Positions 3,382-35,390 are shown, numbered from the stretch's first letter. The stretch is DNA of 64,000 bases from an uncultured bacterium (GCA_963847225.1 CAWJYZ010000005.1:745648-809647); one strand, 5' to 3'. Notes: generated by a model from the letters alone, not told the origin. Made by a program: numbers and translations.

Positions 3382-4893
3382 GTGAGCACCGGCCCCAGCA
3401 CCTCGGGCCCGCCGGCCAGCAACCCCGCGCCGCGTGCCCCGGAGCGCCCCATCCACACCGGCCTGGCCCTCACCGTGGTGATGACCGGCGTGCTCATCAC
3501 GGCGGTTGACACCACCATCGTCGTGCTCGCCCTCCCGGCGATGCGCGCGGGCCTCCAGGTCGGGCTCTCCTCGGTGGTGTGGGTGGTGATCGGCTACCTC
3601 CTGGTCATCACTCTCCTGGCCACTCAGGTGGGCCGGCTCGGCGACATGTTCGGCCGGGTGCGCATGTACGAGGCCGGCTTCCTCGTCTTCATTCTCGGCT
3701 CTGCCCTCTGCGCCCTCTCCTGGAACAGCAGCTCGATCATCGGCTTCCGCATCCTGCAGGGTATCGGCGGGGCGCTGGTCACCTCCAACAGCGGGGCCGT
3801 GATCGCCGACATCTTTCCTCCCCAAAGGCGAGGCCGCGCCTACGGTTTCAATGCCATCGGCTGGAGCCTGGGGGCGGTGGTCGGCATCATCCTCGGAGGG
3901 GCCATCGTCACCTATCTCTCCTGGCGCTGGATCTTCTGGATCAATGTCCCCATCGGCCTCGGCGCCGTGGCCCTGGCCGTTCGCGTCCTCCACGACGTGG
4001 GACAGCGCCGCCAGCACCACCTCGACATCCCGGGGATGGTGACGCTCGGCCTCGGGCTGTACGGGATCCTGTGGGCGGTCACCGAGCTGGCCACCACACC
4101 GATCGATGCGGCGCTCATCGGGTACCTCGCCGGGGGCCTTGTCTGCCTCGCTCTCTGCGCCTTGATCGAATGGCGCCAGAGCGAGCCCATGATCCGCCTC
4201 TCGCTGCTGCGCATCCCCACCATGACCCCCTCCCTCCTCGCTTCGTTCTTCCAGGGTCTCGCCAACTTCGCCGTGCTCTTCCTGGTCATCATGTATCTGC
4301 AGGGTCCGCGCCGGCTCTCCCCCATCGACGCCTCCCTTCTGCTCGTCCCCGGCTATGTCGTGGGCGGCAGCGTCGCGCCCTTTGCCGGGCGCCTTGCCGA
4401 CCGCGTCGGCGCCGTGGTCCCGGCGACCTTCGGGCTGGCGGTGCAGGTCATCGCTCTCGTGATCTACGCGCAGCTCGGCTTGACGACCGGCCTCTGGCTG
4501 GTGGTCCTGGGCAGCATCGTCAATGGCATCGGGGCCAGCTGCTTCTTCCCCGCCAACACCTCGGCGGTGATGAAGGTTTCGCCTCCCGAGCTCTTCGGGG
4601 TCTCCTCCGGGATGCTGCGCACCTTCGCCAATGTCGGCATGGTCTTCTCCTTCTCCATGGCCATCCTCCTCGCCTCCCGCACCATCCCCCAGCAGGAGGC
4701 CTTCGCCATCTTCGTCGGCACAGCCTCCCTGCACGGCCCGGTGGCGGCGGCGTTCACCGACGGGCTGCACGCGGCCTTCTACGGTTCCATGGCGCTCATG
4801 GTGGTGGCGGCCCTTCTCTCCGCCACCCGGGCCGCCCGCTCCCCTAGTTCCGTGGGGCTGCGGCGCGAACCGGCTTCCGCAGCGGAACGCTGA
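3382..4893 (+). CDS. MFS transporter (DHA2-like, ~14 TM)
   Basis: Long hydrophobic protein with MFS signatures (GRLGDMFGRVRMYEAGFLVFILGS). The GTG start is uncertain; an alternative ATG lies ~3481. Confidence 0.7.
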   Translation: MSTGPSTSGPPASNPAPRAPERPIHTGLALTVVMTGVLITAVDTTIVVLALPAMRAGLQVGLSSVVWVVIGYLLVITLLATQVGRLGDMFGRVRMYEAGFLVFILGSALCALSWNSSSIIGFRILQGIGGALVTSNSGAVIADIFPPQRRGRAYGFNAIGWSLGAVVGIILGGAIVTYLSWRWIFWINVPIGLGAVALAVRVLHDVGQRRQHHLDIPGMVTLGLGLYGILWAVTELATTPIDAALIGYLAGGLVCLALCALIEWRQSEPMIRLSLLRIPTMTPSLLASFFQGLANFAVLFLVIMYLQGPRRLSPIDASLLLVPGYVVGGSVAPFAGRLADRVGAVVPATFGLAVQVIALVIYAQLGLTTGLWLVVLGSIVNGIGASCFFPANTSAVMKVSPPELFGVSSGMLRTFANVGMVFSFSMAILLASRTIPQQEAFAIFVGTASLHGPVAAAFTDGLHAAFYGSMALMVVAALLSATRAARSPSSVGLRREPASAAER

Positions 4894-19230: not shown

Positions 19231-20247
19231 ATGGACGTCACCGGCTGGCTGTTGGAATCTGATCCAGCGATCCGCTGGCAGGTGATGCGCGACCTCACCG
19301 ATGCACCCGAGGGGGAGATCGCGGCCGAGCGCGCCCGCGTCGCGACCGAGGGATGGGGCGCATGCCTGCTCGGCCTGCAGCGCCAGGATGGCCAGTGGGA
19401 TGGGGGCACTCCCGCGTTCACCTCCCCGGCCGCGACGACCTGGTGGCAATCCCTGCCACCCGAGAGCCGAGGAACCCTCTTCCCCGAATGGACCTCCACG
19501 ACCTGGAGCTTGGTGCTGTTGCGGGCATTCGGTCTTGAAGCTGCCAGCCCCGCAGCGCGGCGCGCCATCCGCCTGGTCCGTGAGCACTGTCGATGGGAGC
19601 ACGACGGCGAGCCCTTCTTCGCGGGCGAGGTGGAGCCATGCATCAACGGCCGCACGGTTGCCCTCGGCGCCTACTTCGGCGAGGACGTCTCGGGCATCAT
19701 CGACCGGCTCCTCGGCGAGCAGATGGTGGATGGCGGCTGGAACTGTGAGCAGGAGAAGGGATCGACGCGGGGATCGTTCCACAGCACGATCGAGGTGGTG
19801 GAAGGCCTGCTGGAGTACGGACGAGCCACGGGCGGCCCATCGGAAGTGAGCGCTGCCCGCCTCCGCGGTGAGGCATACCTCCTCGATCGGCGCATGCGTC
19901 ACAGGCTGTCGACCGGTGAGGTGATTGACCAGGACCGAACAACCGGTCGGCCTGCGACCTGGACGCAGTTCTCCTACCCCACCTACTGGCACTACGACGT
20001 GCTCCGAGGCCTCGATTATCTGCGCGCGGCTGGCGTCGCTCCGGACGACCGGGTGGCGGAAGCGATCGATGTGGTCGAGTCCAAGCGCGCTGCGGACGGT
20101 CGCTGGGCCCTTGAGAACCCCCATCCGGGCAGGGTGTACTTCGAGATGGATGAGGGTGAGGGTAGACCGAGCCGCTGGAACACCCTCCGGGCCATGCGGG
20201 TGCTCAGGTGGTACCAGCAGCCTCGACAAATCGGACTCCCCGGCTAG
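19231..20247 (+). CDS. Alpha/alpha-toroid protein with prenyltransferase/squalene-cyclase-type repeats
   Basis: Repeated QxxDG(G/Q)W motifs (LQRQDGQWDGG, EQMVDGGWNCE, KRAADGRWALE) are followed by aromatic/Leu patterns (YWHYDVLRGLDYL). It starts 15 bp after the MTase stop. Confidence 0.55.
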   Translation: MDVTGWLLESDPAIRWQVMRDLTDAPEGEIAAERARVATEGWGACLLGLQRQDGQWDGGTPAFTSPAATTWWQSLPPESRGTLFPEWTSTTWSLVLLRAFGLEAASPAARRAIRLVREHCRWEHDGEPFFAGEVEPCINGRTVALGAYFGEDVSGIIDRLLGEQMVDGGWNCEQEKGSTRGSFHSTIEVVEGLLEYGRATGGPSEVSAARLRGEAYLLDRRMRHRLSTGEVIDQDRTTGRPATWTQFSYPTYWHYDVLRGLDYLRAAGVAPDDRVAEAIDVVESKRAADGRWALENPHPGRVYFEMDEGEGRPSRWNTLRAMRVLRWYQQPRQIGLPG

Positions 20248-20311
20248 CTGAGCGGCGGCTTGACGGTGAGAACCGGCGCCGGGACGACCCTGCGGACTCA
20301 CGGCGGTTTTA

Positions 20312-20362
20312 AAGGTCACGTTAAAGGTCATGTCCGCGGGAAGTGACCTTTAACGTGACCTT
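20312..20362. promoter_or_regulatory. 51-bp perfect palindrome (19-bp arms AAGGTCACGTTAAAGGTCA / TGACCTTTAACGTGACCTT, 13-nt spacer)
   Basis: Read directly from the sequence. Each arm itself contains a direct repeat of AAAGGTCA. It lies between the convergent toroid-protein and amt genes. Confidence 0.8.
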
Positions 20363-20440
20363 GACTTCTCTGCTTCTACCGCATGTGCCGCACCGCGGCT
20401 TCTCGGATGTCCTGAGGGAAGGGCCTGTCCCTCCGATCCC

Positions 20441-21811
20441 CTACGAGGCTTCGGCGAAGACCGGTTCCGGCATCCCGATTTGCGGCGCGCCGGGGTACGG
20501 CTCGAGGTCGATGGCCACCTCGCCGTGCACCTGCTCGTCGCCGACACGGAGGTGAGCCTCCGGCGCCTGCAGCGGGACCACGAGACCGACGAGCTTGATG
20601 ATGACGAAGGTGGCCACCCCATCGAAGGCGATGATGAAGAGCAGCGCCAGGGCCTGGATGCCGAGGAGCTTGGGGTTGCCGAAGGCGAGGCCGGTGTCGG
20701 AGACGTTGTTCTTGAGACCGGGGGCGCCGTACACGATCATCGCCGGGTTGGCGAAAACGCCGGTGAGGAGACCGCCCAGGGCGCCGGCCACGCCATGCGT
20801 GTGCAGCACGCCGAGGGTGTCGTCGACCCGGCGGAAGATGGCGAGCCGCGCTGCGAAGTTGATGCTGAGCCAGGGCAGCGTGCCGGCGGCGAGGCCGATG
20901 ATGATGGCCGCCCAGCCGTCGACGAAGCCCGCCGCCGGAGTGATGGCCACGAGGCCGGCGATCATCCCGTTGATGGCGCCGGCGATGCTCGGCCGCTTGA
21001 ACCGCAGATAGTCCCACAGCACCCAGGTGAGGAGCGCAGTGGCCGTGCAGAGATGGGTGTTGACGATCGCTGCCGCGGCGTCGGCGTTGGCGAAGTAGGG
21101 ATCACCGCCATTGAAGCCGCTCCAGCCAAGCCACAGGAGGCCGCCGCCCGCCACCGCCAGCATGAGGTTGCTGGGCGACGAGTGCTGCCGGTCGCGAAGG
21201 AGCCGCGGGCCCACCACCGCGGCGGCCACGAAACCGGAGACGGCGGCTGCCACGTGGATGACGTAGCCCCCGCTGTAGTCGAGGGCTCCGAGCGACGACA
21301 GCCAGCCGCCGCCCCAGATGCTGAAGGCTCCGACCGAGTAGACGAGGGTGATCCACAGCGGCACGAAGAGGATCCAGGCCCGGAAGTTGATGCGGCCGAG
21401 GAGGGCGCCACCCAGGATGATCACGGTGATCGCAGCGAAGACGAACTGGAAGTAGACCATCGAGCTCATCGGGAAGCGCAGGGCGGGGATGAGCCCGGTG
21501 AGCAGGGGGATCGATGCTTGCTTGGTGAGGTCAGCGGCGCTGAGCACCGGGGCCGGCGTGCCCACCGCCGTGAAGCTGTGACTGATCGGATGCCCGAAGC
21601 TCATGTTGTAGGCGAAGAGGGTCCAGACGATGAGCGTCATGGCGAAGGCGTAGAGCACCATGAGCGCGGAGTTCACCGCCCACTTCCGCTTCATGAGCCC
21701 GGCGTAGAGGATGGCGAGGCCGGGGACGCTCATGATCCCCACCAACGTCGCCGCGGTGAGCTGCCAGGCGTTGTCGCCAGGATTCAACCAGCTGGGATCA
21801 GCGGTGGGCAT
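20441..21811 (-). CDS. amt: Ammonium transporter
   Basis: The N-terminus (NAWQLTAATLVGIMSVPGLAILYAGL) matches AmtB and the protein is 11-TM; 456 aa. Confidence 0.9.
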   Translation of the reverse strand: MPTADPSWLNPGDNAWQLTAATLVGIMSVPGLAILYAGLMKRKWAVNSALMVLYAFAMTLIVWTLFAYNMSFGHPISHSFTAVGTPAPVLSAADLTKQASIPLLTGLIPALRFPMSSMVYFQFVFAAITVIILGGALLGRINFRAWILFVPLWITLVYSVGAFSIWGGGWLSSLGALDYSGGYVIHVAAAVSGFVAAAVVGPRLLRDRQHSSPSNLMLAVAGGGLLWLGWSGFNGGDPYFANADAAAAIVNTHLCTATALLTWVLWDYLRFKRPSIAGAINGMIAGLVAITPAAGFVDGWAAIIIGLAAGTLPWLSINFAARLAIFRRVDDTLGVLHTHGVAGALGGLLTGVFANPAMIVYGAPGLKNNVSDTGLAFGNPKLLGIQALALLFIIAFDGVATFVIIKLVGLVVPLQAPEAHLRVGDEQVHGEVAIDLEPYPGAPQIGMPEPVFAEAS

Positions 21812-27087: not shown

Positions 27088-28877
27088 TCCCCTTTCGGGC
27101 TCGGTCGCGGCTCCTCTCGCTCGCGCTGGGGATAGCCGTCGTGGGCGCCTCCTTGGTCCTCTCCGGCTGCTTCGCGGCTCCACCGCAGATCGTCGCCCTC
27201 ATCCCGCCCGACGGGTCCACCCACCTCGACGCCGACACCCCGGTGGAGGTCTTCTTCGACCAGGCAGTCCGGCCCGCGAGCGTCGCCGCCAGCTTCGACA
27301 TCTGTGCCGGTGCGAACGGATGCCAGAGCGGCCTCCCCGGCTGCAGCGATCTCGCCTCGGCCTTCCAAGCAGCTCCCAGCGCCGCTTGCTGGGTGAGTTG
27401 GTTGAGCGATCACTCAGGCTTTGTGTTTCACCATCATGGCCCGGCGCTCTTCGCCCCCAACACAAAGTACGAGTTCAGCCTCAGGGCGGGGGTGGCGTCC
27501 ACCGCGGGGACGGTCAACAGCCTCGACCACGTCTGGAACCTCACGAGCGCCCCCGCACCCACCCTCACCTCCTCGACGCCGGGGAGCGGCCAGACCGGTT
27601 TCCCCCGCGACGGCGCCATCTCCCTTTCCTTCTCCCACCCCATGAAGGCATCGGCGCTGGCCGCCGCGGTCTCGCTTTCTCCCGCCGCGCCCGGGGTCCG
27701 CGTCATCGCTGACCCGAAAGACCCTGCCTCCTTCGAGGTCGTGCCGCGCCAGCCCTTGGCCCCCGATACCGACTACACCATGAGGCTGAGCCGCAAGGCG
27801 ACGGACGCCCACGGCCAACCCCTGGCCCGGGAGATCAGCATCCGCTTCCGCACCGGGGCGCTCGCCGCCGGGTCCCAGGCCCTGGTCCTCGCCGGCCGGC
27901 AGGGGGAGGGTGCGACCGAGGTCCTTCTCGCGCCGCTCTCCACAGCGCCCACCTCCCTTCCCATCCCTGCCGAGGTGGTGGCCCAGGCTCCCCCCTGCCG
28001 GGCCGCCGCGGGCTGCGAAGGAGCTCCCCAGGGAGGGGCCACCGCCTCTTTCGAGCAGGCGGCGATCTCACCGGGCAGCCTTTGGCTGGCCCTCGTGGAG
28101 ACCGATCCGGCCACCCCGCAGTCGACCCAGCTGCACATCCTGGATCTGGCCTCGGGCCACGAGCAGATCGCCTTCCAGAGTGCCCAATGGCCGAGCTGGT
28201 CGCCGGATGGCTCGACCCTGGCCTTCGTGAGCGGCGGGAGAGAGGTCGAGCTCTACCAGCCTGGCAGCGGCTCGCTCACCTCTCTGATGAGCGGCCTCCC
28301 CCCCTCCGGAACGCCGGTGTGGACCGGCTCCGGGGACACGCTCGCCATCCCGGTGGCGGCCAAGGACGGCTCGGTGGCGCGCATCGACCTCGCCACCCCT
28401 GCCCTGGACGCCCGCTACCCTCTGCCCGGACTGACTGGTGCGGCGAGCCGTATCGTGGCCGCGCCCTCCGGTCAGGAGATCGCGGTGGCGCTCCAGCCTC
28501 CCGGGGGGTCCACGACGACATGGGTGGCCAAGCCCGCCGGCTCGCGCGCCCCCCAGCACCTCGCCGCGGCGGCCCTTCCCGTCGGGTTCGTCGACAGCGC
28601 CACCCTCATCGCGGTGGAGCGCTCCGCCAGCGGCGCCTCCCAACTGGTCCGCATCGACCTGGGCAGTGGCGCGACCGCGCCGCTCGCCGCCCCGAAGCTG
28701 CATCCGGATCTGAACACCGCGGCGGTCGCCCCCGACGGCCGCCAGATCGCCTATCTCGCCACCGCTGGGGCAGGGCAGGCGGAGGCCATCGTCGCCAACG
28801 CCGATGGGACCGGCGCCCTCCCCATCGTCTTACCCGAGAGCGGCCTCGTCCCCATCGCCATCAGCCTCGGAGCCTAG
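27084..28877 (+). CDS. Lipoprotein with Ig-like (SbsA/BIG-type) N-terminal domains and TolB-like beta-propeller C-terminal region
   Basis: Signal peptide plus lipobox LVLSGC. PDGSTHLDADTPVEVFFDQAV resembles Ig-like repeats. The C-terminus has WSPDGSTLAF / APDGRQIAYL propeller blades. TTG start overlapping the upstream stop. Confidence 0.6.
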   Translation: MIPFRARSRLLSLALGIAVVGASLVLSGCFAAPPQIVALIPPDGSTHLDADTPVEVFFDQAVRPASVAASFDICAGANGCQSGLPGCSDLASAFQAAPSAACWVSWLSDHSGFVFHHHGPALFAPNTKYEFSLRAGVASTAGTVNSLDHVWNLTSAPAPTLTSSTPGSGQTGFPRDGAISLSFSHPMKASALAAAVSLSPAAPGVRVIADPKDPASFEVVPRQPLAPDTDYTMRLSRKATDAHGQPLAREISIRFRTGALAAGSQALVLAGRQGEGATEVLLAPLSTAPTSLPIPAEVVAQAPPCRAAAGCEGAPQGGATASFEQAAISPGSLWLALVETDPATPQSTQLHILDLASGHEQIAFQSAQWPSWSPDGSTLAFVSGGREVELYQPGSGSLTSLMSGLPPSGTPVWTGSGDTLAIPVAAKDGSVARIDLATPALDARYPLPGLTGAASRIVAAPSGQEIAVALQPPGGSTTTWVAKPAGSRAPQHLAAAALPVGFVDSATLIAVERSASGASQLVRIDLGSGATAPLAAPKLHPDLNTAAVAPDGRQIAYLATAGAGQAEAIVANADGTGALPIVLPESGLVPIAISLGA

Positions 28878-30049: not shown

Positions 30050-31227
30050 GCTCCGGGGTCATCGCCTCGCCGCCATCGGTGCGTGCCGAGATCACCCGCC
30101 TCCGCCTCTACAACTTCCGCAACTACGGCGAGCTGACGGTCGAGCTCGGAGATGGCGTGAACGTCTTCAGCGGGGAGAACGCCCAGGGCAAGACCAACCT
30201 CCTGGAGGCGGTCGCCACCCTTCTTCTCACCCGGTCACCGCGGGCGACGTCACCCGCCGAGCTCATTCGCTGGGGAGAGGAGGAGGCCGCTGTTGACGCC
30301 CTGGTCACCCGCGGTCTCCGCCACGAGACCCTCGGGCTCCGCCTTCGCCTTCGCCCGCAGCCAGAGGCCGGCTCCACGGTGCGGCCCCGAGCCGTACGCA
30401 CCTCGCTCGCTGAGAGCAAGCCCATCCCGGCCCGGGAGGTGCTGGGGCGCTGCCCCGTCGTCCTCTTCTGGCCCGACGACCTCCAGCTCGTGAAGTCGGG
30501 GCCGGAGATGCGACGGCGGCTCACCGATACCCTCCTCAGCCAGCTCGATCGCAAGGCCGGCGACGATCTGCTCCGCTTCCGCCGCGCTCTCCAGCAGCGC
30601 AACGCTCTCCTCCACCAGCTCCGAAGCGGCGCCGGTGACGATCACCTCGCCCCGTTCGACGCCGCGCTATCCCGCCACGGCGCGGCGGTGCAGCGGGCGC
30701 GTCGCGAGATCGTCGAGGGCCTGGCCCCGATCGCCGCCGCGACGATGCGCGACCTCACCGGGGGCCGGGAGGAGCTCTCCCTGCGCTACCGTCCGGACGC
30801 TTCCGACGGCGCGACCACCGAAGAGGAGATGGCCGTGGCTCTGAGCCAAGCTCTCCGGCGCCTCCGGCCCGAGGAGTTGGCCCGCGGCATCACACTGGCT
30901 GGCCCTCACCGTGATGACGTCGAGTACCTCATCGACGGGCGCCCGGCGCGTCTCACCGCCTCCCAGGGGCAGCAGCGCAGCGCGGTGCTGGCCACCAAGC
31001 TCGCCGAGCTCCGCTACGCGCACCAGCGGACCGGGGCGATTCCGCTCCTTCTCCTCGATGACGTCTTCAGCGAGCTGGACCAGCAGCGCCGCACCCAGCT
31101 CGTCGCTGCCGTGACGAGTGGGCCGGACTCACCCCAGAGCCTCATCACCACCGCCGAGCCCGTCGACCTCGGTGGTCCGCGCGAGCGCCACTTCCTCGTC
31201 CGCCGCGGCACGGTCGCGCCGCGATGA
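30046..31227 (+). CDS. recF: DNA replication and repair protein RecF
   Basis: ITRLRLYNFRNY, Walker A GENAQGKTNLLEA and LLLDDVFSELD (Walker B/D-loop). The start ATG overlaps the upstream stop. Confidence 0.85.
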   Translation: MSSGVIASPPSVRAEITRLRLYNFRNYGELTVELGDGVNVFSGENAQGKTNLLEAVATLLLTRSPRATSPAELIRWGEEEAAVDALVTRGLRHETLGLRLRLRPQPEAGSTVRPRAVRTSLAESKPIPAREVLGRCPVVLFWPDDLQLVKSGPEMRRRLTDTLLSQLDRKAGDDLLRFRRALQQRNALLHQLRSGAGDDHLAPFDAALSRHGAAVQRARREIVEGLAPIAAATMRDLTGGREELSLRYRPDASDGATTEEEMAVALSQALRRLRPEELARGITLAGPHRDDVEYLIDGRPARLTASQGQQRSAVLATKLAELRYAHQRTGAIPLLLLDDVFSELDQQRRTQLVAAVTSGPDSPQSLITTAEPVDLGGPRERHFLVRRGTVAPR

Positions 31228-31547
31228 CCGGGTCCCACCGGCCCCGCGACAAGCGTGGCGACCCCCAGCACATCGCCGGTCTCCTCGACACCGCGCTCCG
31301 GGAGCTGGGGGTGCGCCGGCAGATCCGCGAGCTCCAGCTCCGCGAGGCGTTCGCCGCCGTCGTCGGTCCGGCCCTCGCCTCCCTCTGCGAGGCCATCTCA
31401 TTGGAGCGCGGCACCCTCCTCGTGGCCACCCGAAACGGCGCCCTGGCTCAGCAGCTGCAGCTGGAGATGCCGGTCATCACCGCCGAGCTCAACCGGCGCT
31501 TGGGCGGCGATCAGGTGCGCCGCCTTCGCTTCACCGCGCTCAGCTGA
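31224..31547 (+). CDS. DUF721 family protein (recF-gyrB spacer gene)
   Basis: ~107 aa with the typical conserved position after recF. Start overlaps the recF stop. Confidence 0.65.
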   Translation: MTGSHRPRDKRGDPQHIAGLLDTALRELGVRRQIRELQLREAFAAVVGPALASLCEAISLERGTLLVATRNGALAQQLQLEMPVITAELNRRLGGDQVRRLRFTALS

Positions 31548-31553
31548 GCTGCT

Positions 31554-32672
31554 CTACGGAACTCGCACCGGCATGATCACGGACAGGAAGTCGTCTCGCC
31601 CGTGGGGGCGGAAGGCGGCCGGCTGCAGCGGCCCGTTGAAGCCGAGCTGGACCTCCTCGGCGTCGATGGCCTGCAGAGCGTCCAGAAGGTAGCGGGCGTT
31701 GAAGGAGACCTGTACATCGTCTCCCTCCACGGTGGCCGGGAGTGGCGCGTCGTGGTCACCGACCTCCGCCGTCTGAGCGCGTAGCTCGAGCTCGCCGGAC
31801 CCGGCGTGGAGACGGAGGGGATTGGCGGCGTCGCGAGCCAGCACCGATGCCGTGCGGGCGCTCTTCAGGAGGAGGGCGGTGGGCAGGACGACGGTCGTGG
31901 AGGACTGGGAGGGGATGACCTGCGCGTAGTTGGGGTAGTTGCCCTCGATGAGGCGAGAGGCGATCTCGATGTCGCGAAGACGGAAGAAGATCTGGTTCCG
32001 GTTGTCGCTGAAGGCGATGCCCAGCTTGGGGCGGCTCGGGTTGACCGCGCGGGCGACCTCTCCGAGGTGCCGGGCGGGGACGATGACGCTGCCGGTGTGC
32101 AGACCCGCCTCCCGGATCTCGACCGCAAGCGTCTTCACGGCGAGGCGATGGCGGTCTGTCGCCACCATGGTCATCCTCTCACCCTCGATGTGGAGGAGCA
32201 CGCCGGTCAGAACCGGGGTCTGCTCGTCCCCGGAGGCGGCCACCGAGGTCTGAGCGACACCCAGCTGGAACTGCGCGGCGTCCACCTCCACCGCGGGCTC
32301 GCTCTCCCGAGCTGGGATGGGCGGGAACTCCACGGCGTCGATGCCGTGGAGATTGGTCCGCTGCGCCGCGTTGCTGATGCGGAGGATCTGCGTCCGCTCC
32401 TCCACCTCCATCCGGCAGGGCGACTCGTCGAGGGAAGCCACGTACTCGCTGAGGAGACGGGCGGGAACGGTGATGCGGCCCTCCTCCTCGACCGTGGCGG
32501 GCACCACCGCGCTGATGGTGAGATCGAGGTTGGTGGCGGTCACCCGCAGCCCGCCGCTGTCCGTCTCCAGAAGAACGTTGCTGAGCACGGGGAGCGTCGA
32601 TCGCGGGGATACGGCTCTCGAGACCAGGTTGAGCATGGCGCTGAGAGCGGATGGTGAGACGGTGCACTTCAT
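31554..32672 (-). CDS. dnaN: DNA polymerase III beta sliding clamp
   Basis: MKCTVSPSALSAMLNLVSRAV start and three-domain clamp pattern, ~373 aa. The ATG was verified. Confidence 0.9.
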   Translation of the reverse strand: MKCTVSPSALSAMLNLVSRAVSPRSTLPVLSNVLLETDSGGLRVTATNLDLTISAVVPATVEEEGRITVPARLLSEYVASLDESPCRMEVEERTQILRISNAAQRTNLHGIDAVEFPPIPARESEPAVEVDAAQFQLGVAQTSVAASGDEQTPVLTGVLLHIEGERMTMVATDRHRLAVKTLAVEIREAGLHTGSVIVPARHLGEVARAVNPSRPKLGIAFSDNRNQIFFRLRDIEIASRLIEGNYPNYAQVIPSQSSTTVVLPTALLLKSARTASVLARDAANPLRLHAGSGELELRAQTAEVGDHDAPLPATVEGDDVQVSFNARYLLDALQAIDAEEVQLGFNGPLQPAAFRPHGRDDFLSVIMPVRVP

Positions 32673-32921
32673 GGCGGAGCCGGTGGCGACGTCGGTGGGC
32701 CAGTTGTTCACCCGAGGGGACTCCTTGAGGGGGACGAGTTTATTGAGAAGAGGTAGTTAACCGAAGTGGGCAAACCGGGGAGAACCCGGCCGTTTGAATT
32801 GGGCGCCCTGTGGAGAACTGGCGCCTGCCTGTGGAGGGGCAGGGGGCTTTGGCTGGGGTTTTGCTCAGGGAAGGCGGGCTGGGGCGATCCTCCACAGGCT
32901 CCCCGGAAGCTCTCCACAGGA
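32673..32921. promoter_or_regulatory. Candidate oriC: DnaA-box cluster plus AT-rich unwinding element in dnaA-dnaN intergenic region
   Basis: Four YCTCCACAG 9-mers: 32808-32816 and 32829-32837 on the bottom strand, 32889-32897 and 32911-32919 on the top strand. Also TTGTTCACC at ~32704 and an AT-rich stretch gagtttattgagaagaggtagttaacc at 32737-32763. Confidence 0.6.
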
Positions 32922-34337
32922 TTACCCCTCGGACTCCGTGTGGTTGTGAAGGCGCTGTCGGAGCTGGCGGATGTCGCTCTGGAGGCGGACGTCCTCCCGG
33001 AGGAGCTCGCTGATCTTCTCGATGGCGTGGAGCGCGGTGGTGTGGTCGCGCCCGCCGAAGGCATCCCCCACCACGGGCAGGGAGGACTCCGTCTCCTCGC
33101 GGATGAGGAACATGGCGACCTGGCGGGGAAAGACGATGTGCTTGTCGCGGCGCTTGCTCTTCATCTCCTCCACGCTGATCCCGTAGTGGCCCGCCACCGT
33201 GGCTTGGATGAAAGGAATCGTGAGCGGCTGCACGTCGGCCACGGGAATGATGTCGCGGAGAATGCGCTGCGAGGTTTCCAGAGTGATGGCGTGGCCGTTG
33301 ATGGAGGCGTGGGCGAGGACTCGGATCAGCGCCCCCTCCAGCTCGCGGATGTTCTTCTGGATCCGGTGAGCGATGAAGCTGACAACCTCGTCGGGGACGA
33401 GGCGGGAGTGGGGGCCGAGCTTGCTCTTGAGGATGGCCAGGCGGGTCTCGAACTCGGGTGGCTGGATGTCAGCCATGAGGCCCCCTTCGAAGCGGCTACG
33501 CAGCCGGTCCTCGAGGGTGGGAATTTCCTTGGGCGGCCGGTCGCTGCTCACCACGATCTGCTTCTGGATGTCGTGGAGTGCGTTGAAGGTGTGAAAGAAC
33601 TCCTCCTGGGTGCGGTCCTTCCCGGCCAGGAACTGAATATCGTCGATGAGCAGCACGTCGACACTGCGGTAGCGATGCCGGAACTCTGTGGTCTTGTTCT
33701 CGAGGATGGACTCCACGACCTCGTTGGTGAACTTCTCAGAGGTCACGTAGGCGACCTTGGGGGAGCGGCGGTGTCCCTCTCGCACGGCGTGCCCGATGGC
33801 GTGCATGAGGTGGGTCTTGCCCAGGCCCACGCCGCCGTACAGGAAGAGCGGGTTGTAGGCCTTCCCGGGAGCCTCCGCCACCGCTCGGCAGGCGGCGTGG
33901 GCGAAGCGCGAGGAGGTGCCGACGACGAAGCTCTGGAAGGTGAAATTTGGATTGAGCCGCGTCTCCCCGGCGGGGGACAGGTCGGTCTCGGGGGCGAGGT
34001 CGGAGTCCGGCAGTGGAGCGGGCTCGTCGCGAGCGGGCACCGCGGTGGGGTCGACGGTGATCTCCACGGTGCAGTCGCGGCCGATGAGGCTGGAGATGAT
34101 CTCCTGGATGACGGAGACGAAGCGCTCGGAGACCCAGTCTCGCGCCAGCCGCGTCGGCACCCCGATGAGGAAGCGCTCGCCGTCGCTCTCCACGAGGGTG
34201 GCGGTGGCCAGCCAGGTCTCGTAGCTGGGACGGGCGAGCTGGAAACGCAGCTCCTCCTGGGCCGCGGCCCAGACCTGCTGTCCTGGCGGGCGTTCGCTGA
34301 CGCCGAGGGCGGCGCCATCGTCAGCTCCGAGCGTCAC
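32922..34337 (-). CDS. dnaA: Chromosomal replication initiator DnaA
   Basis: AAA+ Walker A GGVGLGKTHLMHAIGH, DnaA box-binding C-terminus (VGDAFGGRDHTTALHAIEKI), 471 aa. Confidence 0.92.
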   Translation of the reverse strand: MTLGADDGAALGVSERPPGQQVWAAAQEELRFQLARPSYETWLATATLVESDGERFLIGVPTRLARDWVSERFVSVIQEIISSLIGRDCTVEITVDPTAVPARDEPAPLPDSDLAPETDLSPAGETRLNPNFTFQSFVVGTSSRFAHAACRAVAEAPGKAYNPLFLYGGVGLGKTHLMHAIGHAVREGHRRSPKVAYVTSEKFTNEVVESILENKTTEFRHRYRSVDVLLIDDIQFLAGKDRTQEEFFHTFNALHDIQKQIVVSSDRPPKEIPTLEDRLRSRFEGGLMADIQPPEFETRLAILKSKLGPHSRLVPDEVVSFIAHRIQKNIRELEGALIRVLAHASINGHAITLETSQRILRDIIPVADVQPLTIPFIQATVAGHYGISVEEMKSKRRDKHIVFPRQVAMFLIREETESSLPVVGDAFGGRDHTTALHAIEKISELLREDVRLQSDIRQLRQRLHNHTESEG

Positions 34338-34832
34338 GCTTTACCTGTCGACCCGCATCGGCCAACGCCGAAGCCGCACCTCTGTCCTCCGCGTGCCGCC
34401 GTGATCACTCCAGTTGTCCACAGGTTGTGAACAAGAGTGGAAAAATCGCGGCGCCGCTGCCGGACGGGGCGGGTCAGGGACGACGCCTTGAGGGAGCCTG
34501 TCCCGCCGGAGCACCCGCCAGTCTAGCAATGCCGGAGGCGGCCGACAACGAGTCGCGCCGGCCGTTCTTGGCGGAGCCCTGGCCAGGTCCGGTCGAGGTC
34601 TGGGGGGATCGCCAGGGCTGGCGATGACCGTGGCCGCCCCGGTCACCGTTCGGGGAATGAGGGGGCGGAGCCCCGCCGGAAAAGGTGAAGGCGGAGGCGG
34701 GAGCCAGAGCGCCGGGGGATTCGGGGCAGAGCCCCCCGCATGGGTATACTGACCGGGATTCCCGCCACCCGGCGCTGGCTCTGGCATGCCCGCGGGTGGA
34801 GATTCCTCGAAGTTCCGTGCAGGAGAGCTGGC

Positions 34833-34980
34833 ATCAAGCGGACCTATCAGCCGAAGAAGGCGTACCGGCGCAAGAACTCACGGCTTCCGTATCCGGATGG
34901 CGACACCCGGTGGGCGGAACGTGCTCAAGGCCCGCCGCCTCAAGGGCCGCAAGCGCCTGACCCCCGCCGGGCCGCGCTGA
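34833..34980 (+). CDS. rpmH: 50S ribosomal protein L34 (apparent 1-nt deletion and non-canonical start)
   Basis: (G)[14 protein letters not shown] in one frame continues as [30 protein letters not shown] in the +1 frame. An aggaga SD lies 6 nt upstream of the ATC Ile codon that occupies the expected ATG position. Confidence 0.7.
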
Positions 34981-34994
34981 CGGCCGTACGAGGT

Positions 34995-35390
34995 CTGCGT
35001 GGACGCGGTCACTTCGCCTCCATCCGTGCCGGGCGCTGCCAGGGGCGGTCCGGTCCGCTCCGGATCTTCGCCGCCGCCAATGGGGGTGACGAGGGCGCCC
35101 TGGGCCTGGCCACGCCGAGGATGCCGGGAGCCGTCCCCCGCAACCGGCTGCGCCGCCGCCTCCGCGCCGCCTGCCGCGGCATCATGGCGATGGGCGGGTA
35201 CGACCTCATCGTGAGCGCCGACCCGGAGGCCCTGACCCTTCCCTTCATGGAGCTGCAGGAGCACGTGGAGCGCGCGGCGCGGGCCGCGCTGGCCCGGGCG
35301 GGGACAAAGGCCACCCCCAAGGGCGATGCGGGCGAGCCGCCTCGCGGCGCCCCGTCCCCCCGGAGCAGCGGCGGGAGCCCTCGCGGATGA
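34995..35390 (+). CDS. rnpA: RNase P protein component
   Basis: AVPRNRLRRRLRAACR matches the RnpA RNR motif. No canonical start codon is found in frame near the expected position, so the start is uncertain. Confidence 0.6.
   Translation: MRGRGHFASIRAGRCQGRSGPLRIFAAANGGDEGALGLATPRMPGAVPRNRLRRRLRAACRGIMAMGGYDLIVSADPEALTLPFMELQEHVERAARAALARAGTKATPKGDAGEPPRGAPSPRSSGGSPRG

Follow-up and report, generated by a model that had tools for sequence, protein, structure and literature searches.

We analysed a window of 64,000 nucleotides from the genome of an uncultured bacterium (CAWJYZ010000005.1:745648-809647), which has a G+C content of about 71%, with regard to the short intergenic spacer between dnaA and dnaN. 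A sequence-only reading of the same DNA had proposed that this spacer contains a candidate replication origin (oriC), and its claim that the region is flanked by dnaA and dnaN was confirmed by the Pfam matches of both genes (Table 1). The plus strand upstream of dnaA carries rpmH, rnpA, yidD, yidC and jag, which diverge from dnaA, and the neighbourhood corresponds to the classic jag-yidC-yidD-rnpA-rpmH / dnaA-dnaN order. This order is constant in every relative locus with listed genes, and the genes expected in a conserved origin neighbourhood (rpmH/rnpA/yidC, dnaA, dnaN and recF) are present in the window. For comparison, eight loci were obtained via DnaA homologues and 44 more by a metagenome scan with the pattern of a triple DnaA box located upstream of dnaA; 27 loci hold both the end of dnaA and the start of dnaN, and enrichment was calculated for 25 non-redundant loci. 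Single loci are designated by numbers with the prefix L.

The best relatives of the DnaA protein show 65-92% identity and the named ones among them belong nearly all to Candidatus Dormibacterota/Dormibacteria, a widespread phylum of soil and permafrost with no cultured member. Among the GTDB matches listed, the closest representative by DnaA is the metagenome-assembled genome (MAG) "Chloroflexi bacterium CF_126" (L012, 67% identity), and the others belong mostly to other phyla with 42-56% identity. Judged by these DnaA relationships the host lineage is Candidatus Dormibacterota, which the NCBI taxonomy treats as a separate phylum within Bacillati, and not Actinobacteria. Therefore, the actinobacterial framing of the sequence-only reading has to be given up with regard to the host, whereas its argument that origins of this type lie between dnaA and dnaN still applies.

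Domain IV of the DnaA protein aligns with the structures of E. coli (1J1V) and B. subtilis (8BTG), and the motifs PRQ, SLP and GGRDHTT.LHA are retained, which we take to contain the base-contacting residues R399, P423, D433, H434, T435 and H439 of 1J1V. The cognate initiator of this locus consequently has the box-reading domain IV that an origin requires, as indicated by the Bac_DnaA_C match and the alignment with 1J1V. As domain IV keeps the DNA-contact motifs of E. coli, a canonical box preference is expected, which agrees with the near-consensus boxes upstream of dnaA and would make the boxes of the spacer medium- to low-affinity sites.

The length of the spacer depends on the start of dnaN and is 210 bp with GTG 32711 or 248 bp with ATG 32673. 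The start is ambiguous because a Shine-Dalgarno sequence precedes the GTG, the Pfam match begins at ATG 32673 and the element overlapping the GTG is also conserved outside coding DNA. This GTG element, GGTGA(A)CAACTGG among the relatives, is preserved at the nucleotide level also in lineages in which it falls outside the gene (L086-L089 and L012), and the version of the window, GGTGAACAACTGG, is similar to the context TGTGGACAACTGG of an upstream box.

Table 1. Position and sequence of features at the dnaA-dnaN locus. Positions are counted from the first letter of the window.
Feature	Position	Strand	Sequence and remarks
dciA (DciA/DUF721 family)	31224..31547	+	107 aa; Pfam PF05258, E=2.5e-19
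dnaN	31554..32711 or ..32673	-	385 aa from GTG 32711, 372 aa from ATG 32673; all three DNA_pol3_beta domains
GTG element	32700..32712	-	GGTGAACAACTGG; overlaps dnaN GTG; reverse box-like TTGTTCACC on + strand
dnaN Shine-Dalgarno sequence	32721..32726	-	AAGGAG, 9 nt before GTG; kept in the clade of the window and in the 82% group of relatives
AT-rich block, candidate DNA unwinding element	32734..32765		dnaA-sense GTTAACTACCTCTTCTCAATAAACTC
F4, weak forward box	32765..32773	-	TTGCCCACT; 11 bp from F3, adjoins AT-rich block; T(G/C)CCCA(C/T) in most relatives
F3, weak forward box	32776..32784	-	TTCTCCCCG; 33 bp from F2
A/T element	32792..32800	-	AATTCAAAC; between F2 and F3; ATTCGAAA or ATTCAGAAA in most relatives
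F2	32809..32817	-	TTCTCCACA; best spacer match (one mismatch), 21 bp from F1; TT.T.CACAG kept in close relatives
F1	32830..32838	-	CCCTCCACA; TGCACA, TCAACA or TCCCCA in relatives; least conserved of the four
R3, degenerate reverse box	32859..32867	+	dnaA-sense TGAGCAAAA; at dyad centre; weak in window
R2	32888..32896	+	TCCTCCACA; 22 bp from R1; CTGTGGA invariant in five close relatives
R1	32910..32918	+	CTCTCCACA, dnaA-sense TGTGGAGAG; CCTGTGGA invariant in five close relatives
dnaA	32922..34337	-	471 aa; Pfam DnaA_N, Bac_DnaA, Bac_DnaA_C
Triple DnaA box	34414..34444		TTGTCCACA (34414-22, +), TTGTTCACA (34426-34, -), TTTTCCACT (34436-44, -)
Promoter-like element, putative dnaA promoter	34520..34548	-	TTGTCG-N17-TAGACT; upstream of triple box

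DnaA boxes on both sides of dnaA and AT-rich DNA in the spacer

The 9-mer YCTCCACAG was found five times in the window, compared to 1.6 expected copies, and four of these copies lie within 112 bp of the spacer at 32808-16 (-), 32829-37 (-), 32889-97 (+) and 32911-19 (+); the fifth one at 27937 is the sole copy outside the spacer. In the canonical register the boxes read TTCTCCACA, CCCTCCACA, TCCTCCACA and CTCTCCACA, with 1, 3, 2 and 2 mismatches to the consensus TTATCCACA. All mismatches are confined to positions 1-3, in agreement with the earlier claim that the four copies differ from the consensus only in their 5' part, and the near-symmetric arrangement described for the two copies per strand was also recovered, as the midpoints of the outer and the inner pair of boxes agree within 1 bp. 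The core TCCACA itself occurs 23 times in the window compared to 18 expected copies. As this core is not over-represented window-wide, the signal of the boxes lies in their clustering, with about 0.04 copies expected per 112 bp. Furthermore, only three sites in the window have at most one mismatch to TTATCCACA and two of them flank dnaA, and the box scan revealed no further cluster elsewhere in the 64 kb.

The four copies of YCTCCACAG stand as counted, but they do not represent the full set of boxes, since weaker conserved boxes are located nearer to the AT-rich block. The homologous position of F3 is occupied by TTATCCCCC, TTATCCCCA, TTGTCCACC or TTTTCCACT across the phylum and is the most widely conserved box position. 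At the centre of the dyad R3 is apparently a third reverse box, and inspection of the unaligned spacers revealed an apparent counterpart in L129 (TGGGGACAA) and an exact box in L101 (TGTGGACAA). All boxes from F1 to F4 are in forward orientation on the dnaA-sense strand and face the AT-rich block, with spacings of 21, 33 and 11 bp that are near whole helical turns. As expected of an oriC, the non-coding DNA holds a cluster of three or more DnaA boxes, oriented both ways, namely the four with the core TCCACA and three to four weaker ones.

The comparison of the 25 non-redundant Dormibacterota loci revealed 3.18 copies of TCCACAGG per kb in the spacers, 1.75 over 450 bp on the upstream side of dnaA and 0.02 (4 copies) in the remaining 235 kb, which corresponds to an about 150-fold enrichment in the spacers over flanking DNA. 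The more stringent motif TT.T.CACA was counted 11 times in the spacers, 32 times upstream of dnaA and not at all elsewhere; the selection of metagenome loci by the triple box inflates the upstream counts, not those of the spacers. When the window was aligned with the four relatives nearest to it, a clear footprint on the boxes was seen, as 21 of 24 columns of the box cores are invariant compared to 13 of the 74 columns that separate the boxes (Fisher p=9e-10). In L081 and L082 the forward boxes have changed from TCCACA to TGCACA, and the reverse boxes show no compensating change. The position in question is N in the E. coli box definition TTATNCACA and is the one box position where DnaA tolerates a change. 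Judged from the alignments, the changes in the forward boxes are of the kinds that a protein site tolerates.

The AT-rich block between F4 and dnaN contains 9 G+C in 27 bases and is the lowest 27-mer of the 64 kb, tied with one site at 20307-20333, so the claim that a 27-bp AT-rich stretch is unusual for this GC content holds as well. Conservation of the dnaN-proximal block extends across the phylum. The 30-mer with the lowest GC content falls in the spacer in 25 of 26 non-redundant loci of 3.6-21 kb, including two ties with the region upstream of dnaA. In 23 loci this minimum is the dnaN-proximal block and in L083 and L084 it is located at another place in the spacer; L086 alone has its minimum outside the spacer, though the spacer ties it. 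In terms of composition only, the block represents the adjacent AT-rich DNA expected of an unwinding element. It contains a trio-like run of triplets (CTA CCT CTT CTC) and a -10-like TAAACT (32737-32742).

In the 64-kb window the raw cumulative GC skew has its minimum at 31-32 kb and changes sign as expected of an origin. After correction for strand, the skew at third codon positions (GC3) gave the best breakpoint at 30-31 kb with t=2.7, a value obtained from overlapping windows in 64 kb only and embedded in a plateau from 15 to 36 kb. With coding frames assigned, windows on the leading strand have a less negative GC3 skew than those on the lagging strand on both sides of the breakpoint. The strand bias of the genes was uninformative, with 69 plus and 71 minus assigned windows on the left and 46 plus and 76 minus on the right. 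In 64 kb, GC skew, which the sequence-only reading had named as a refuting test, supports the origin only weakly.

A second group of boxes is located upstream of dnaA. The sequence-only reading had noted TTGTCCACA at 34414-34422, and this box is present, but it is not a lone box and belongs to a conserved triple box about 75-110 nt before the dnaA start. The triple box is kept in the window and seven Dormibacterota loci (L081-L088) with the consensus TT(T/A)TCCACT, then TTGT(T/G)CACA, then TGTGGA(C/T)AA. It is present in all eight loci obtained via DnaA homologues. The window and L081-L088 also keep TTGTSG-N17-TAGACT upstream of it. A generic sigma-70 scan of 31400-35000 called a promoter neither for dnaA nor for dnaN, and the promoter-like elements are therefore proposed from conservation alone. 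A box cluster between promoter and start codon is the usual arrangement for autoregulation of dnaA. From its sequence and position the triple box is probably the autoregulatory operator of dnaA, and it may cooperate with the origin as well.

Two further observations concern this region. The dnaA leader contains a conserved GGAGGA-N5-GTG from 34385-34390 onward (-), about 50 nt upstream of the annotated GTG of dnaA, with a strong resemblance to a Shine-Dalgarno sequence. In the window it opens a 12-codon open reading frame (ORF) whose TAA is located 3 nt ahead of dnaA. A conserved leader peptide was considered for this element and dropped as improbable, as inspection showed that frame and length of the ORF differ among the relatives. 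In L012 six to seven copies of nTCCACAGG are located upstream of dnaA (3540-3965) and not in the dnaA-dnaN spacer, and its AT-rich block (6 G+C in 30) still adjoins dnaN. Lineages therefore differ in how the boxes are divided between the two intergenic regions.

Interpretation of the spacer and alternative explanations

Gene identity, synteny, box enrichment, footprints on the boxes, the AT-rich block and the DnaA domain all agree with the proposed oriC in the dnaA-dnaN spacer. Based on these features, we assume that the spacer (~32700-32921) very likely serves a Candidatus Dormibacterota bacterium as its chromosomal replication origin or, at the least, represents the unwinding half of it. The origin is of the ordinary dnaA-dnaN type, and the fresh point is its host. 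With the sequence features, clustering, conservation and orientation described above, the binding of DnaA, unwinding and helicase loading can be envisaged by analogy to E. coli and B. subtilis. DnaA with its canonical domain IV would occupy the better boxes first and ATP-DnaA would next fill the weaker dnaN-proximal ones. From the forward boxes the DnaA oligomer would then spread along a single strand of the AT-rich block, melting it, and the helicase would be loaded at the melted block, presumably with DciA, which is encoded 7 bp beyond dnaN.

Several findings weigh against this interpretation. Just one box of the spacer matches the consensus with at most one mismatch, those closest to the AT-rich block carry three mismatches, and the forward boxes of the 82% group read TCCCCA, which is a change of a core base. 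Furthermore, the trio register in the window is poor and the published thresholds for the basal unwinding system (BUS) are not reached, the skew is weak with its t of 2.7 over a plateau of 15-36 kb in a 64-kb window, and the AT-rich block harbours a conserved -10-like TA.ACT. Because of this hexamer the block could be the promoter of dnaN, and the spacer would then mainly serve transcriptional control, with boxes that regulate dnaN or titrate DnaA and with unwinding taking place elsewhere, for example in the rpmH-dnaA region or away from dnaA. The conserved hexamer (TAAACT/TAGACT/TACACT) precedes the Shine-Dalgarno sequence by about 10 nt and matches the -10 element TAGACT of the putative dnaA promoter, and the GC skew places the origin no better than to about 20 kb. 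However, reading the alignment revealed no conserved -35-like hexamer 16-18 bp upstream and the promoter scan mentioned above made no call, at least seven phased boxes in two orientations exceed the need of a simple operator, their orientation and the box-to-CTA spacing of 12-13 bp suit an unwinding module, and no further box cluster was found in the window. We therefore consider a mainly transcriptional role improbable; a possible role of the block as dnaN promoter need not conflict with unwinding. A bipartite origin, in which the upstream triple box and the cluster in the spacer are jointly active and dnaA is looped out, overlaps with our interpretation and would refine it. Conserved DnaA boxes in both intergenic regions, the confinement of TT.T.CACA to these two within 253 kb of DNA from the relatives and the conservation of the triple box over 65-92% DnaA identity are in line with such an arrangement, and a bipartite organization with rpmH-dnaA-dnaN has been documented for Firmicutes (PMC7561715). 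On the other hand, the upstream cluster consists of only three tightly packed boxes in the classic place of an operator, downstream of a conserved promoter-like element, inspection revealed neither an AT-rich block nor a trio-like run beside it, and the upstream 30-mer minimum ties with the spacer in 2 of 26 loci and is never lower. Hence, a bipartite origin seems rather unlikely to us, but it deserves more credit than the transcriptional explanation.

The box pairs also form nested inverted repeats (R1:F2 and R2:F1, 10-11 nt each), which could fold into a stem in the 3'-terminal RNA of the dnaA message or form a DNA cruciform instead of being bound by a protein. The minimum-free-energy fold indeed pairs R1 with F2 and R2 with F1, and RNAalifold keeps 23 pairs for five sequences, four of them changed on both sides. 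However, these double-sided changes are mostly due to the concerted exchange of C to G at position 3 in all four boxes of L083, and complementarity of the boxes is given by construction, because they are inverted pairs of one binding motif. The folding energy is ordinary (z=-1.09, with 24 of 200 shuffles folding equally well) and ranges from z +0.7 to -2.2 in the relatives with two exceptions. For six of the 23 pairs, one or two of the five sequences lack pairing, the change from TCCACA to TGCACA in the forward boxes of L081 is uncompensated and complementarity is lost in the 82% group. In addition, no U-tract follows on inspection, no terminator was called in the spacer, and the Rfam scan of the whole window at gathering thresholds yielded no match. 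The RNA stem, the cruciform and an intrinsic terminator were rejected on the grounds of ordinary folding energy, broken pairs, lost complementarity and the missing U-tract, and we regard such a structure as the function of the repeats as highly improbable.

Within the interpretation as an origin it is also conceivable, but doubtful, that Dormibacterota use an unusual box grammar. This would comprise the dyad of box pairs with a variable position that changes in concert (C in the window, G in L083), dnaN-proximal sites with TCCCCA/CCCAC in place of TCCACA throughout much of the phylum, and a further box-like element beyond the AT-rich block, so that converging sites bracket the block. If true, it would mean a distinct DnaA assembly on a very short (~210 bp) high-GC origin, possibly with a cruciform or a second factor.

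Literature searches, which did not extend to automated DoriC entries, found no paper on a Dormibacterota origin. The features in Table 1 provide a conserved and testable origin map for this phylum that consists of the boxes, the candidate unwinding element and the dnaA operator. Such a map can anchor origin calls in Dormibacterota MAGs, which are of use for estimating growth rates from coverage, for orienting contigs and for closing chromosomes. With it, one more deep-branching lineage joins the evidence for an ancestral module of boxes plus AT-rich DNA between dnaA and dnaN, and the general view of origins is unchanged.

Neighbouring genes and additional observations

Beyond dnaN, recF and dciA are located on the opposite strand at 30091-31547 (+) and converge on dnaN, with the stop codons of dciA and dnaN 7 bp apart. 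In most textbook arrangements recF comes after dnaN and has the same orientation. L081-L085 and L088 keep the inverted recF-dciA unit, and other genes take its place in L086 and L087.

On the other side of dnaA the gene rpmH for ribosomal protein L34 (34833-34979, +) is broken across two reading frames. Near 34875-34876 the window reads AAGAACTCAC and the relatives AAGAC.CA(T/C), which means one additional A in the window that alters the protein stretch YRRKTHGFR. The most likely cause of this frame break is an error of assembly or in a homopolymer and not a pseudogene, and further single-base indels are therefore possible in the window. The apparent start of rpmH is ATC at 34833-34835 (+), which encodes I-K-R-T-Y-Q-P and follows AGGAGA 7 nt upstream; an in-frame ATG, GTG or TTG is lacking. 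The ATC is kept in every relative inspected (L081-L088, and L012 at 67%), and gene callers annotate a 48-aa L34, whose start is placed at the ATC by codon count. From this conservation, it looks like a rare non-canonical start codon.

The other region with a 27-mer of lowest GC content (20300-20365) contains a near-perfect 21-nt inverted repeat of a doubled AAAGGTCA unit (TTAAAGGTCACGTTAAAGGTCA ... TGACCTTTAACGTGACCTT) between the convergent ORFs 19231..20247 (+) and 20441..21811 (-), and may serve as a bidirectional terminator or as an operator.

Comparison with known origins

The oriC of E. coli is similar in that two opposed sets of boxes, strong and weak ones mixed and helically phased, are located beside an unwinding element, and the R1 and R4 boxes of E. 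coli have the core TCCACA followed by G as in the window. It differs in its position, which is not beside dnaA; the E. coli origin uses 13-mer repeats, IHF/Fis and control by GATC/SeqA.

With the actinobacterial origins of Mycobacterium and Streptomyces, which carry boxes of the TTGTCCACA type, the window shares the high-GC host and the site between dnaA and dnaN. The relaxed position 3 of the box and a DUF721/DciA gene beside recF, both of them actinobacterial features, are also found in the window. The actinobacterial spacer, however, is about 0.5-1 kb long and carries a dozen or more boxes, whereas that of the window measures 210-248 bp and has 4 good boxes and 3-4 weak ones. Further differences are the Dormibacterota host and the inverted recF-dciA unit that converges on dnaN.

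The bipartite origins of B. subtilis, C. difficile and H. pylori resemble the window in the box clusters that flank dnaA on both sides (34414-34444 and the spacer). The incC part of the B. subtilis oriC, with the BUS (Richardson/Pelliciari/Murray), shares with the window the site between dnaA and dnaN, tandem forward boxes, a GC-rich spacer, CTA-type triplets, an AT-rich block and the dnaN ribosome-binding site; a second box cluster upstream of dnaA is common to both as well. In contrast, the boxes by the AT-rich block are weak in the window, the trio run is short and out of register, the block, at only about 33% GC where the genome has 71%, is not a true A/T tract, and the helicase loader is presumably DciA. 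Helicase loading in B. subtilis uses DnaD/DnaB/DnaI.

A BUS requires a box with at most two mismatches, a spacer of 0-16 bp (13 bp is commonest, with a peak at 10-13 bp) and at least three trios with the middle adenine on the bound strand (PMC8287927). In C. difficile the trio run 5'-CACCTACTACTATTACTACTATGA-3' belongs to the dnaA-dnaN region, where it immediately precedes the unwinding element (PMC7561715). From this sequence, together with that of B. subtilis, the order expected on the dnaA-sense strand is forward box, GC cluster, CTA-type triplets, AT-rich DNA and dnaN, and the window shows the same order and hence the orientation described for B. subtilis and for the oriC2 of C. difficile (PMC8287927, PMC7561715), with F1-F4 presenting TTATCCACA so that it reads toward the trios and the AT-rich block. 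The two boxes next to the block, TTCTCCCCG and TTGCCCACT, have three mismatches each, and F2 lies about 60 bp from the CTA run, so that no box with at most two mismatches was found within 0-16 bp of the first trio. Read by hand in the register 13 bp after F3, the triplets are GGT TAA CTA CCT CTT CTC, of which three of the last four fit, but never three consecutive ones. Because of these mismatches and the poor trio register we do not file the window as a demonstrated BUS. In most related lineages a box is followed by CTA 12-13 bp on, which is the commonest BUS spacing, and some of them, with TTATCCCCA or TTGTCCACC, also have a box with at most two mismatches. Several lineages thus fit the scheme much better than the window does, with a spacing as in TTATCCCCA with 12 bp and CTA CGG CTA in L087, TTGTCCACC with 12 bp and CTA in L086, TTATCCCCC with 12 bp and CTA TTA ATC in the 82% group and ACATCCACA with 13 bp and CTA CTG TTA in L012. 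By analogy to these systems, the region is one that would work like a BUS-type origin.

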